From Parachlamydiales bacterium (lineage in GTDB: Bacteria; Chlamydiota; Chlamydiia; Chlamydiales; SM23-39): DNA of 64,000 bases. Below are positions 8,048-12,859 of the stretch, in pieces. A program made the translations under genes and the position numbers. The DNA lies in the NCBI GenBank assembly GCA_016931275.1, contig JAFGFA010000003.1:69026-133025 (forward strand). Reading direction: 5' to 3'. The notes beneath the pieces were generated by a model, which saw only the letters and a list, made by a program, of their open reading frames with translations, had not been told where the DNA came from and searched no databases. Position 1 is the stretch's first letter. Every line of letters starts with the position of its first letter.

Positions 8048-9700
8048 CTACTCATGAGCAAATTCTTCCATCCAATCTTTACTGTTTAAAGGATGACCCA
8101 ATACATGTTCGATCAATATTGGCCAAGAATAGGAATCTCCTGGAGCAAAAAGTTTTTGTTGCAAAAACTTCCCTGTCTTGGGATTCCACATATTCCCGTA
8201 AGGGGAAAACATTTTAGCTTTTGCTTGCAAAGAGGACGCAAACATCTCTCCCAAAAGATAACTATAATAATATACAGGAGCAAAAGCGATATGATATTTT
8301 GCCGCCCAATCCCCCTTCATCTTACGCCCCTTCGGAGGATGAATTTTTTGATATTTTTCACAAAGGCTCCACCAAAGAGCGTTGAGATCCTGATGGGGAT
8401 TTTCATATAGCGCTTTTTCAAACATCGTGATCATCATGACAAACCGGCTGAACAAGAGCTGCGTTCTCTGCTGACTCTTTTCTATATGCGACAAGATCTC
8501 TTTTTGCTCTCGGGTAGGAACATGGACAAAGGCAGTAAAAAAATCCGGATGAAATACCGCCCTGCCGACCAAAAGAGCCATGGCTTCCGTAGTGCTCATA
8601 TGGGGAGGCGTCCTAAGAAGCCAGGGAAGATTGCCGGCGATATGTTCGTCATATAAAGCATGGCCTAATTCATGCAACAAAGTGGCCAGCCAATGAATCG
8701 TTGGAACCATATTGCACAAAATACGAACATCATTTTTTCGATCAATGGAGATACAAAAGGCATGCTGATTTTTATTATCTCTGGGATACAGATCACTTCT
8801 TTGCAATATATTTTCAATAGAAAATCCCATCGCATCGTAAAATTTTTTACTTACGGCAATAGGATCCAAAGACGATACCAAATCATCGATATTCTTAGGT
8901 TCTAAAGGATCTTTTTGACAAAAAGGATCGCTCCACGCCCAAGGAAGAACTTCAGGCTCCGGCAGATGATATTTTTGGGCTAAGTCTGTATGGATCTCTC
9001 CTATCATGATATTATACTTTTTTTCAGAATCTTCTCTTAATTTTTCAAAAAGACGCTCTATTTCCGGAAAATCCACCTCTGACAGATCCAAGCTCATCTC
9101 AAAATAATTGGCATATCCCATTTGTCGGGCGTATTGATTGCGTAAAACAACTAACTCTACAATGTGAGGAGCTAAAATATTTCCGATCTCTTTAGAAAGT
9201 TCCCATATTTCTTGACGCACTGAGATATCCGTTTCTTTTTCTAAAATTTGAGAAATATCATTTTGCGTTACTATTTTTCCCTTATAAGTAGGCCGAAAAT
9301 CGACATATATCTGGCTTAATTCCGCTTCTTTTTGTGCAAGAGTTTGTATCAACTCTTCAGAAACACGGCTTGTCTTAAATTGACGAAGAAGAATTTTTAG
9401 CTCTCTTTGTAAAAGAGGATTTTTCCAGGTATCTATACTGGCATTCCATTGTAGCAGCTGATCATAGACTTTTTCATTATGAAATAGCTGAGAAAGCTTA
9501 ACCTCATAGGCAACGACCAGTTCCACAGCATCTTTAGACCCTGTTGTTTCCAAAATCCAATGCAATTTATTCAACCGTGTACTGATCTTTTCCACTTTAG
9601 GGACAAATACATCTAAGAACTTTTGAAATCCCTCTTCTTGAGAAAGAGCTTCAAGAGATAAAAAAAACAATACCGATAGGATAAATCCTAATTTTTTCAT
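8048..9700 (-). CDS. Secreted neurolysin-fold zinc metallopeptidase (M32 carboxypeptidase-Taq-like / M3-like)
   Basis: HELGHALYD zinc motif, DVRILCN (compare M32 DxRxT), [30 protein letters not shown] (compare M32 HW..G.FGYFP.Y.LG). The ORF extends to 9772, but ATG at 9700 yields the signal peptide [20 protein letters not shown] and avoids overlapping yidD. Confidence 0.7.
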
Positions 9701-9730
9701 ATAATACATCCAAAAAGTTACTTTCCCTTT

Positions 9731-9940
9731 ATGAAACAGGTTTTTATTTTTCTCATCAAGCTCTATCAACATACGATCAGCCCCTTTTTGGGAAACCCTT
9801 GCCGTTTTTATCCCTCTTGTTCCGATTATTCTATCGAGGCTTTTTCTAAATATGGTTGTCTTAAAGGATTTTGGCTTACCTTAAAAAGAATCGTCAAATG
9901 CCATCCCTTTCATCCCGGCGGCGAAGATCCCCTTCCGTAG
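9731..9940 (+). CDS. yidD: Membrane protein insertion efficiency factor YidD
   Basis: [62 protein letters not shown] is the full YidD signature. Confidence 0.9.
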
Positions 9941-10018
9941 GATTTTCTCCTTAGAGCCTTTCTTGCCTGGAGATAAAGATCCGCTTTAAAAAGCTTCAAA
10001 TATATTATTATTAGTCAG

Positions 10019-10240
10019 AGGATATTATTTTGGAGAGGCAACTTCATCAGTGTTAGAGGACATCTCAGAAAAAGCTCCGTGAAAACACCTTCAAGGACAC
10101 AAAAGACCCTGCCTCCGGCTCAAGTGCTTTGGAAATATCGAACAAGCATTGTAAGAAGGTGCTCTTAGTAGAAATTTCTGATACCAATGAGTACCTAACC
10201 ACTAATCTTTTGAAGGCTTTTCCATAATAAGCTCCATCAC
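10019..10240 (+). pseudogene. Decayed internal fragment of an MFS transporter gene paralogous to 11624-12859
   Basis: 10019-10222 aligns by eye with 12147-12355. The core 10088-10153 is identical to 12208-12273 apart from a single g/a difference (ccttcaaggacacaaaagaccctgcctccggctcaagt[g/a]ctttggaaatatcgaacaagcattgtaa). In the transporter frame it reads RILFW.G....LRKSS...PSRTQKTLPPAQVLWKYRTSIV and then hits several stops. No start or remaining TM segments are present. Confidence 0.8.
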
Positions 10241-10296
10241 AATTACGGTTATCGCTAAGAAAACTCGGAAATCTATAAAAGATTTTTTGAATCGCT

Positions 10297-10869
10297 TTAT
10301 CTGACAACTTTTAGTTTAAACCAAGCAAAGCAAGTACTTATCAGGGCAATAATTGAGATTCCAATTGCCAAAGCCTTTCTTGAACAAGAACCTTCATCCG
10401 TTGTAAACAGACGGACAAAATTCCTCTTCAATCGACTAGCATTGACAGAACAGCAGAATATAAAATTCTCTGCTTTTCTACTTGCAAGATTATCCCAGTA
10501 AAACTCTGCACCGGAAGGACGAGCAAAATGCTGATGCCATACGAGATGATCCCAAATTTCTTCTTCTTCTAGAACTCTCGCTGCCGCTTCGGTTCTTAGA
10601 TAATTTATTGCTGCGGGTGTCTGAGGGCGGTTTCGGGCCTCTTCTTGCATCCATAAGACACTACGTTGTAAAAAGTAGCCTTTTCTCCGACCGTCTATAG
10701 CGTTGAGAATGTCTATTTTTTCTTCTCGGTTTTCTTCTTGTGTGGCCGCCCATTCCGCCTGTAACCAAAGATCTCCCAAACAGTGATAGTGTTGTATATT
10801 GGTGGTGAGTTCATCGCGCGCACTCACTCCTCTTCGTAATTCCAAATTATATGTTTTCCGCATGCGCAA
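10297..10869 (-). CDS. Hypothetical protein with a C-terminal transmembrane anchor
   Basis: 190-aa ORF with a TTG start and locally GC-richer sequence. C-terminal hydrophobic segment ALAIGISIIALISTCFAWF. No family recognised. A 36-codon ORF (ATG at about 10962) ends in a different frame just upstream, so it may be frameshifted. Confidence 0.35.
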   Translation of the reverse strand: MRMRKTYNLELRRGVSARDELTTNIQHYHCLGDLWLQAEWAATQEENREEKIDILNAIDGRRKGYFLQRSVLWMQEEARNRPQTPAAINYLRTEAAARVLEEEEIWDHLVWHQHFARPSGAEFYWDNLASRKAENFIFCCSVNASRLKRNFVRLFTTDEGSCSRKALAIGISIIALISTCFAWFKLKVVR

Positions 10870-11550
10870 TTAATTCTTCTTGCGATCTTTGATCTCTGAA
10901 AAAATCAAAAAATATAGGATTGGCTCCTATTACAAAATTTATTGCTGAACTGGCTACAGACATGTTTATCCTCTTTTAAAGATCTCTATGTTATCACATC
11001 GATAATAAAAACCCTATTTTTTTTCATTCTACCGGGGATCTAGCTTTCTAAATATTTTATTTGATACACTAATACTCCTTAAAACAACTTTAGGAGCACA
11101 ATATATCTCAAAAACACTTTCAATGTCTTTCAAATGAGCAATAGAATTTGATCCAGTCTTTCATGGCTTGAAAACCTCCTTTGCAAAGAGGAACTTCTCA
11201 CACAGATTTTAGAAAAATTGGAATTCTATTTTTTATGTTTTATCTCATGGATGTCGGCGGAGTGATATCCCTATAGCTACGCATTATGCTCATAGAGCTA
11301 CAGCACATAGATGGTTGATGATACAGGAAAAGAGTATTGGATCGAGTGCTTAGTCTTCTATTACAAAGAGCCCTGAATGCGAAGAAAGTAGATCCTTCTT
11401 CTCTTTTGGTAGATAGATCTTTTTTCCTCTGCGCCTGGTCGCTTGTTCCTGTATACTCCTCAATAATACTGTATTATTGTACCATTAAAATTTACTGTTT
11501 TCAATTTTGCATCCCCTCAAAAATTCTGATTCGTGATAAAATCTTCTTTT

Positions 11551-11623
11551 ACCTATCAGGGGTGCCTGTTTGGGCTGAGATGATACCCTCACAACTTGAT
11601 CCGGATCATACCGGCGAAAGGAG
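11551..11623 (+). promoter_or_regulatory. TPP (thiamine pyrophosphate) riboswitch / THI element
   Basis: caGGGGTGCCtgtttGGGCTGAGAtgaTACCCtcacaACTTGATCCGGATCATACCGGCGAAAGGAGatg matches the conserved THI-box cores (GGGGUGC, CUGAGA, ACCC, CCUGAUCYGGAUAAURCCRGCGNAGGGA). The AGGAG Shine-Dalgarno of the downstream gene lies inside the 3' conserved segment. Confidence 0.85.
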
Positions 11624-12859
11624 ATGTTTACGCGAAAAAACAATATTCTGATCGTACTGATCGGAAATCTCTTATATCATTTTGATCGAGCCTTATTTGA
11701 TCTGCTTATTCCCTTTCTTGTTCCCGTCTTTTTTCCACAACAAGACCCTGTTTACGCTCTTATTTACCTGTATGCAATAGGTCCTTTGAGCCTTTTTATC
11801 AAACCTCTTGGGGCTCTTATATTCGGACATTTTGGAGATCGATTAGGAACAAAAAAAATCCTGTCCATTACATTACTGGGGATGGCGATCCACACAGGGA
11901 TGATGGGCTTTTTGCCTACCTATGCCCAAGCGGGACTATTTTCCCCCTTGTTACTTGCACTTACCCGTCTGATGATCAGTTTTTTTTCTTCTGGAGAGAC
12001 AACGGGAGGGGCGATCACATTATTTGAGAACACCTCTCCAGCAAAAAGAAATCTGATTAGCTCTTTATATGATGCCTCCGGAGTTTTAGGGATCCTTATC
12101 GCTTCTTTTTCTGTGTGGATATTACATTCCACTTTGGATTTCTGGAGGATATTATTTTGGAGCGGCAGCATCATCGGAGCTATTGGATGGTATCTCAGAA
12201 AAAGTTCTCTTGAAGAACCTTCAAGGACACAAAAGACCCTGCCTCCGGCTCAAGTACTTTGGAAATATCGAACAAGCATTGTAAAAATAATGCTTCTCGC
12301 AGGATTTTCTTATGCCAATTACTACCTCACCACCAATTTTATGAACGGCTTTTTACACATTATCAGTTCTATTACAAAAGAAAAAGCTATTGGATTAAAT
12401 AGTGCTTTATTAGCCTTCGATTTACTTCTTTTACCTTTATTTGGAATATTAAGCTTAAAAATACGCAAAGAAACGCTAATGATCCTCTCCATTTTGGGGA
12501 TTATTTTCTGTGGCTGCCCTCTATTTTTTTTACTGAAAGACACGACCCTTTTTAAAGCTTCTTTTCTTAGAATTCTTCTGATGGTTTTCGGAGTGATTTT
12601 AGCGGCGCCCTATCATGCTTGGGTATATGAAAAAACTCCCGAGAATCATCGATATTTACTAGGAGCTTTTAGTACCGCTATGGGAGGAAGAATAGGATCG
12701 TTTATTCTCCCGATGGGTCTTTGGTTATATCATAAAACCAACCTAACGGCTGCGCCGATTTTCCCTTTAATTGTCCTTGGATTTTTTTCACTTATCGCTA
12801 TTGGACAGAAAGAATCGATCAAAGCCAAACAACCCTTGCTAGACTATCCAGAGCCATAG
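11624..12859 (+). CDS. MFS transporter controlled by the TPP riboswitch (candidate thiamine / thiamine-precursor transporter)
   Basis: About 12 hydrophobic segments. MFS motif A GHFGDRLGTKK after TM2. N-terminus resembles metabolite:H+ symporter-type MFS (LLYHFDRALFDLLIPFL). The start codon immediately follows the riboswitch. Confidence 0.8.
   Translation: MFTRKNNILIVLIGNLLYHFDRALFDLLIPFLVPVFFPQQDPVYALIYLYAIGPLSLFIKPLGALIFGHFGDRLGTKKILSITLLGMAIHTGMMGFLPTYAQAGLFSPLLLALTRLMISFFSSGETTGGAITLFENTSPAKRNLISSLYDASGVLGILIASFSVWILHSTLDFWRILFWSGSIIGAIGWYLRKSSLEEPSRTQKTLPPAQVLWKYRTSIVKIMLLAGFSYANYYLTTNFMNGFLHIISSITKEKAIGLNSALLAFDLLLLPLFGILSLKIRKETLMILSILGIIFCGCPLFFLLKDTTLFKASFLRILLMVFGVILAAPYHAWVYEKTPENHRYLLGAFSTAMGGRIGSFILPMGLWLYHKTNLTAAPIFPLIVLGFFSLIAIGQKESIKAKQPLLDYPEP

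Follow-up and report, generated by a model that had tools for sequence, protein, structure and literature searches.

How obligate intracellular bacteria acquire thiamine diphosphate (TPP, also written ThDP) is an acknowledged gap; for Rickettsia, import of ThDP has been inferred from gene content with no transporter assigned (PMC5615194). The stretch of DNA analyzed here, 64,000 nucleotides of contig JAFGFA010000003.1 from a Parachlamydiales bacterium (GCA_016931275.1, positions 69,026 to 133,025; hereafter the window), brings this question down to a single locus, where a TPP riboswitch runs directly into the gene for a permease of the major facilitator superfamily (MFS). What does this permease carry, and how could the RNA in front of it control its synthesis? 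Based on the gene content of the genome and on the distribution of the riboswitch–permease pair among the chlamydiae, we lean towards the view that the permease would import host TPP as such.

An aptamer that contains the ribosome-binding site

An Rfam scan of the whole window found a single riboswitch, a match to the TPP family RF00059 at 11548–11639 (+ strand, 67.2 bits, E 5e-11) that spans the complete model, positions 1–105. A genome-wide search with RF00059 returned this match alone (E 2.2e-13). A previous sequence-only reading of the locus had placed a TPP riboswitch with all of the conserved THI cores in front of an MFS gene and had proposed a cmsearch with RF00059; the score exceeds the family's gathering score of 54.3 bits, and the assignment stands. 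All of the conserved cores are seen: GGGGUGCC, the J3/2 motif CUGAGA (11575–11580), ACCC, and a P4/P5 arm with the end CGAAAGGAG. The pyrimidine-sensor arm (P2–P3, with the J3/2 CUGAGA) and the pyrophosphate-sensor arm (P4–P5, with its GCG bulge) are closed by P1 and align at high posterior probability. The window aptamer departs from the model by one deletion only. These 10 positions of the Rfam alignment were at first taken for a missing P3, but that was ruled out; they correspond to the optional P3a stem, and the aptamer is therefore canonical.

The features of the switch and its gene are the following:

11548–11639, + strand: TPP riboswitch aptamer (RF00059 match), with its structured core at 11553–11627
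11554–11557, + strand: 5′ strand of P1 (UAUC), from the Rfam alignment
11618–11623, + strand: AAGGAG resembling a Shine–Dalgarno (SD) sequence, composed of the P4 3′ strand (11618–11620), the junction (11621–11622) and the first base of the P1 3′ strand (11623)
11623–11626, + strand: 3′ strand of P1 (GAUG), from the Rfam alignment, which holds the start codon ATG at 11624–11626
11624–12859, + strand: gene for a 411-aa, 12-helix MFS permease of a divergent metabolite/H+ symporter (MHS) type, a candidate TPP/thiamine importer (Pfam, NCBIfam and AlphaFold2)

P1 consists of four pairs (U11554–G11626, A11555–U11625, U11556–A11624 and C11557–G11623) and P4 of three (C11595–G11620, U11596–A11619 and U11597–A11618), whereas P5 is formed by 11601–11604 with 11611–11614; all of these pairs were checked as standard. 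The RNA is an ordinary member of RF00059, but unusual in that its aptamer is at the same time the ribosome-binding site. AGGAG occupies 11619–11623 and ATG occupies 11624–11626, which leaves an SD–ATG spacer of 0 nt and corrects the 2 nt given in the sequence-only reading. There is no in-frame ATG, GTG or TTG other than that at 11624 upstream of the conserved IGN motif of the protein, making 11624 the sole credible start. In the four closest relatives (L045–L048), the start codon comes 7–9 nt after the same AGGAG, and the position of the L045 ATG is ACG in the window.

There is no room for a separate expression platform between the aptamer and the gene. Because the AUG lies in the 3′ strand of P1 and the SD is distributed over P4, the junction and P1, control should be translational and exerted by direct occlusion; this anatomy fits the earlier suggestion of regulation at translation initiation. 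The element would work as a TPP-sensing OFF riboswitch with the ribosome-binding site built into the aptamer. At high cellular TPP, the folded aptamer would hide the start site and block translation of the permease; at low TPP, the weak 4-bp P1 and 3-bp P4 would open and the permease would be made. The minimum-energy fold computed without ligand differs from the aptamer, as is usual for riboswitches. A close functional parallel is the E. coli thiM-type translational TPP riboswitch, which shares the aptamer class, the conserved cores and the predicted effect of the ligand, hiding of the ribosome-binding site. Unlike the thiM type, the window switch has neither a separate expression platform nor an anti-SD hairpin, has the SD-like AAGGAG at the 3′ end of P4 where the consensus is AGGGA, and places its AUG in the 3′ strand of P1.

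The permease and the thiamine genes of its genome

The genome (1,209,137 bases in 32 contigs, 99.08% complete) encodes four open reading frames (ORFs) with a Transket_pyr domain, of 680, 676, 666 and 333 aa. With four genes for TPP-dependent enzymes, it needs TPP. Profile searches of the six-frame translated genome, however, found no ThiC, TMP-TENI (ThiE), ThiG, TPK_catalytic or ThiL; in 14 model genomes used as controls, the same profiles detected ThiC, ThiE, ThiG and ThiL in 11–14 and TPK in 7. The sole ThiD-like signal scores 21.8 bits, below the cut-off, and lies within a 503-aa ORF. A tblastn search of the genome with chlamydial TPK, ThiE-like, SemiSWEET-like and THI5-like proteins gave nothing better than E 0.16. 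The sequence-only reading had recommended looking for thiC, thiE, thiG and thiL: all four are missing, and so is TPK. The genome is a clean case, with a single riboswitch and a single gene under it, four TPP enzymes, and not one thiamine enzyme.

Since no known enzyme is present that would make TPP from thiamine, thiamine monophosphate (TMP) or their precursors, import of TPP is the simplest reading of this gene content, and the lack of a TPP-forming kinase makes TPP a more likely cargo than thiamine or a precursor. The permease, encoded by the single gene under TPP feedback, would then be the importer, and it is the best candidate for drawing the finished cofactor from the host cell. The original proposal of an importer for thiamine, TPP or a precursor is supported by the gene content and by the linkage described below; the missing kinase narrows it to TPP. 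The main rival is that the permease imports unphosphorylated thiamine, or TMP, and that an unrecognized kinase then makes TPP inside the cell. This has precedent, in that the characterized riboswitch-controlled bacterial carriers are all described as thiamine uptake systems (PMC9026889), but profile searches and tblastn with chlamydial TPKs revealed neither TPK nor ThiL in this 99%-complete genome. Taking this together with the survey results below, we consider thiamine or TMP import rather unlikely.

The permease itself is clearly placed at the level of fold. Pfam finds only MFS_1 (81.7 bits, cut-off 33.4) and Sugar_tr. The top NCBIfam model is that of the metabolite/H+ symporters, TIGR00883 (TC 2.A.1.6), which is matched at 174 bits over model positions 1–393 of 400. 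Its curated cut-off of 443.45 bits is not reached, and we therefore treat the permease as a divergent relative rather than as a curated MHS member. Weaker NCBIfam matches are to ProP (proline/betaine), TcuC (tricarballylate) and ShiA (shikimate). An AlphaFold2 model built from 30 homologues (pLDDT 91.5, pTM 0.89) shows long helices throughout, and its top Foldseek matches are all MFS carriers, of many substrate classes (TM 0.64–0.77). With MFS_1 above its cut-off and 12 helices arranged in two six-helix bundles, the protein is a member of the MFS. Its first description as a 12-TM MFS protein of the metabolite:H+ symporter type agrees with these results, TIGR00883 being the best NCBIfam match although below cut-off. 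Searches of Pfam and NCBIfam at E up to 0.01 returned only MFS-type models and no homology to ThiT, PnuT/PnuC, ThiBPQ, ThiV or CytX, so that the permease does lie outside the ThiT/ECF, ThiBPQ, PnuT, ThiV and CytX families, as had been claimed.

Structural databases do not indicate the substrate. A PDB sequence search with the permease alone gave no match, and a PDB profile search returned generic MFS proteins only (OCT1 and phosphate transporters); the Foldseek matches are likewise generic MFS proteins. The permease shares with the MHS family (ProP, KgtP, ShiA and TcuC) the 12-helix MFS fold, motif A (GHFGDRLGTKK) and the GN...D motif of TM1, but stays below every curated cut-off; its TM1 reads YHFDR, and at the position of H19 two of the three outgroups used below carry W. 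Of the 20 polar positions conserved in its clade, the permease retains 19. Three residues within transmembrane helices are specific to the clade, which conserves H19, D266 and R316 where the outgroups have W/Y, L/A and A/M, respectively. Acidic, basic and aromatic side chains in this combination would match a cargo that joins a cationic ring to an anionic tail, although this is only suggestive. The conserved D266 and the aromatic residues would also suit the thiazolium cation of thiamine, a point in favor of thiamine or TMP as the cargo.

Riboswitch–permease pairs across the chlamydiae

To place the pair in context, we used a sample of 151 genomes of Chlamydiota, in which proteins with at least 180 bits to the window protein were counted as orthologues. 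RF00059 has 65 matches at or above its gathering score, in 59 of the 151 genomes, and of the matches to the window protein 64 reach 180 bits, with 29 others (paralogues) scoring lower. An orthologue lies downstream, on the same strand and within 3 kb, of 35 of the 65 above-threshold riboswitches, in most cases within 100 nt. When sub-threshold matches are counted, 41 of the 64 orthologues have a riboswitch upstream on the same strand, as opposed to none of the 29 paralogues, and these 41 linked genomes are spread over 11 chlamydial families. Co-occurrence of THI elements with orthologues of the permease, which the sequence-only reading had put forward as a check, is thus observed. A scan of public genomes with a 15-sequence alignment identified 15 relatives, all of them chlamydial metagenome-assembled genomes (Rhabdochlamydiaceae, Parachlamydiales and unclassified Chlamydiia). 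Eight of these 15, including the four closest (57–66% identity), have a riboswitch above threshold. Two non-chlamydial homologues, from Marinilabiliales (33% identity) and a metagenome (26% identity), have no TPP riboswitch. Next to the Marinilabiliales homologue, on the opposite strand, a cobalamin riboswitch (92.5 bits; L060:2055–2255, − strand) stands upstream of secretion-tail (Por_Secre_tail) genes.

The linkage is not universal. For 20 unlinked orthologues, a sensitive scan of the preceding 1.3 kb gave no TPP element, and about a third of the orthologues are therefore truly without a riboswitch. A maximum-likelihood tree unites the orthologues in a single clade, separate from three outgroups (SH-aLRT 100); inside this clade, linked and unlinked genes are interspersed and at least 7 changes are forced. 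This interspersal suggests repeated loss of the riboswitch link. The window protein groups with those of G068, G124 and G116, all riboswitch-linked and all without both kinases, and its subclade mixes three taxonomic families, a pattern that hints at lateral spread of the cassette.

The unlinked orthologues speak for a further explanation, namely that the cargo is unrelated to thiamine (for example, an osmolyte or a 2-oxo acid that TPP enzymes use) and that the switch either ties the level of the permease to TPP status or is a decaying remnant. The family-level matches to proline/betaine, tricarballylate and shikimate carriers would agree with this, as would the odd 0-nt SD spacing and the gene relic nearby, which suggest some local decay. 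We nevertheless regard an unrelated cargo as improbable. The riboswitch linkage has been kept over 11 chlamydial families, no gene other than that of the permease is under TPP control in a genome that has to rely on external TPP, and the clade's conserved polar positions are intact at all but one site. An OFF response at high TPP would also be the wrong logic for providing TPP enzymes with their substrates.

The distribution of kinases bears on whether TPP, or else thiamine or TMP, is the cargo. Among the sampled genomes, 51 carry TPK (E 1e-13 to 1e-30) and 7 a genuine ThiL. Neither was found in 26 of the 41 riboswitch–MFS genomes, and 22 of these are also without a TMP-TENI gene. Against an unrecognized kinase in the window's genome stand the 25 other riboswitch–MFS genomes that likewise have no TPK or ThiL, together with the ease with which chlamydial TPKs are detected where they are present. 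In the window's own family (f1), the five riboswitch–MFS genomes (G000, G058, G087, G116 and G120) and the five TPK genomes (G083, G101, G128, G130 and G149) do not overlap, one genus having both kinds, and this mutual exclusion also argues against thiamine or TMP as the cargo.

Several observations weigh against TPP import. The kinase-less share among the riboswitch–MFS genomes (26/41, 63%) equals the background of 94/150, so that the linkage is not enriched in kinase-less genomes. The remaining 15 of the 41 do carry TPK or ThiL; thiamine would serve those equally well, which favors its import, and an unrecognized kinase in the window's genome is possible. To our knowledge, characterized MHS carriers move small carboxylates or zwitterions and not nucleotide-sized diphosphates. 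At the level of the RNA, 0-nt SD–AUG spacing is unfavorable for initiation, and a pyrimidine tract at 11541–11550, if transcribed, would lock the SD with or without ligand. Finally, six genomes have a ThiE-like gene between the switch and the MFS gene, an arrangement that may hint at precursor or TMP chemistry.

These ThiE-like inserts are divergent TMP-TENI genes of 221–260 aa (L036 in G087, L037 in G138, L038 in G104, L039 in G147, L040 in G091 and L041 in G125) that score 54–116 bits, compared with 170–220 bits for canonical ThiE. Because four of the six genomes are without TPK and ThiL, a role as TMP synthase makes little sense there. The inserts, and the presence in other chlamydiae of THI5-like genes for synthesis of hydroxymethylpyrimidine (HMP) phosphate (HMP-P) under the same switch, would be accommodated if the permease served salvage by carrying precursors or degradation products of thiamine, such as HMP or thiazole. 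We give this explanation very little credence. The window's genome has no ThiE, ThiL or credible ThiD, the 21.8-bit signal being below cut-off, and an imported precursor could therefore not become TPP; the lack of both kinases in four of the six insert-bearing genomes counts against it as well.

TPP riboswitches of the sampled chlamydiae also precede genes of other kinds. The THI5/NMT1-like proteins encoded behind the switch at L007, L009, L011 and L016 carry a CCCFC motif and are look-alikes of the yeast-type HMP-P synthase. At eight loci (L010, L012, L014, L018, L026, L028, L031 and L127), the riboswitch is followed by a PQ-loop/SemiSWEET-like membrane protein of 73 to ∼90 aa and then by TPK. 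G035 (1.2 Mb) has both a riboswitch–PQ-loop/SemiSWEET–TPK operon and a riboswitch–MFS gene, and its congener G042 keeps the MFS gene only, a contrast that we count in favor of TPP import. The TPK gene is split into two ORFs in G035 and carries a stop in G033. Cys-rich ORFs of 80–87 aa directly follow the riboswitch at L035:2141–2383 (− strand) and L013:1236–1499 (− strand), and in G129 this ORF separates the switch from the MFS gene. G068, the genome most closely related to that of the window, has two further RF00059 matches (71.5 and 30.4 bits; L129, G068:C28:57000–60700), which precede genes for a 262-aa DUF6624 protein and an orphan of 385 aa; neither has a riboswitch-controlled counterpart in the window's genome.

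In one genus, which we take to be Chlamydia proper (23 sampled genomes of ∼1.0–1.3 Mb), six genomes (G008, G015, G016, G017, G019 and G020) have sub-threshold RF00059 matches of 31–34 bits. Each precedes a canonical ThiE gene (170–178 bits) on its own strand by ∼100–200 nt, as in G017:C1:762780–762878 and 762976–763512 (locus L130). In these genomes, which have neither TPK nor ThiL, thiE may stand behind a degenerate TPP riboswitch.

Neighboring DNA and the place of the permease among known carriers

Two elements close to the switch bear on the extent of the transcript and on its possible control, and a third feature lies further upstream:

11534–11542, + strand: putative extended −10 promoter element TGATAAAAT, read from the sequence
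11646–11666, + strand: lineage-specific 9-bp hairpin inside codons 8–14, 22 nt into the MFS ORF
10018–10242, + strand: relic of a second copy of the transporter gene, from the central loop to TM7 (blastn and tblastn)

A consensus promoter scan did not list the TGATAAAAT element; a similar TGATATAGT occurs at the aligned place in the closest relative, L045. If TGATAAAAT acted as an extended −10, it would put the RNA start near 11549–11551 and leave out the pyrimidine tract at 11541–11550. That tract is a perfect 10-bp complement of 11616–11625, which takes in the SD plus the A and U of the start codon, and L045 has a weaker version of this complementarity. Because the 10-bp helix would give no regulation, we assume that the tract lies outside the transcript. 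Without ligand, the ensemble of a transcript starting at 11549–11553 leaves the SD mostly free of pairing (pairing probability 0.3–0.6). The hairpin at 11646–11666 is kept with compensatory changes in L045 and L048, and its 3′ strand there encodes the conserved IGN motif. It was considered as a transcriptional platform and rejected as a general mechanism: it is not general among linked orthologues, with a mean z of −0.17 as against −0.58 in unlinked ones, and it has no proper U tract.

The relic matches positions 522–754 of the permease gene with 80% DNA identity over 234 nt (blastn) and 74% identity over 47 aa (tblastn), confirming a decayed paralogue fragment that had been recognized upstream from the sequence. 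It is adjoined by ORFs of 190 aa (10297–10869, − strand) and 80 aa (10065–10307, − strand) that have no Pfam match. The stretch from an M3-type peptidase gene (8048–9772) to the riboswitch looks like decaying DNA.

Literature searches on TPP riboswitches in chlamydiae or with MFS proteins yielded, apart from unrelated papers, just one case from a fungus (PMC5997356), and in the chlamydial pangenome literature searched we found no mention of thiamine or riboswitches. The known bacterial systems that come closest are ThiT/ECF, ThiBPQ, PnuT and the NiaP-type MFS carriers, NiaP being a class of MFS vitamin carriers named among the thiamine transporter classes (PMC9026889). They follow the same logic, with a TPP riboswitch before a transporter in a B1-dependent organism, but they feed a kinase (TPK, or ThiK plus ThiL), and the window's genome has none. 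We regard the permease as a candidate vitamin carrier under riboswitch control, with its family undescribed and its substrate probably of a new form.

Intact TPP is carried in eukaryotes by the mitochondrial SLC25A19/Tpc1 and the colonic SLC44A4. These transport the cargo that we predict for the permease but have unrelated folds, belong to unrelated families and are not associated with a riboswitch. The chlamydial and rickettsial NTT carriers for ATP/ADP and NAD+ offer a parallel in lifestyle, in that a finished phosphorylated metabolite is taken from the host; they belong to a different protein family, and the window candidate, unlike them, is marked by a ligand-specific RNA sensor.

On a wider proposal, our judgment is evenly balanced: the MFS clade would be a secondary carrier for intact TPP from the host cytosol, the first such bacterial MFS known, and would be the sole TPP source in many chlamydiae, under feedback from an aptamer that doubles as the ribosome-binding site. 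An RNA sensor that marks one permease family in 11 chlamydial families makes the gap in TPP supply directly testable. If thiamine is the cargo, the missing kinase must exist. Should it be TPP, MHS-like carriers would have a wider range of substrates than is known, and a cofactor would join the ready-made host metabolites used by chlamydiae.

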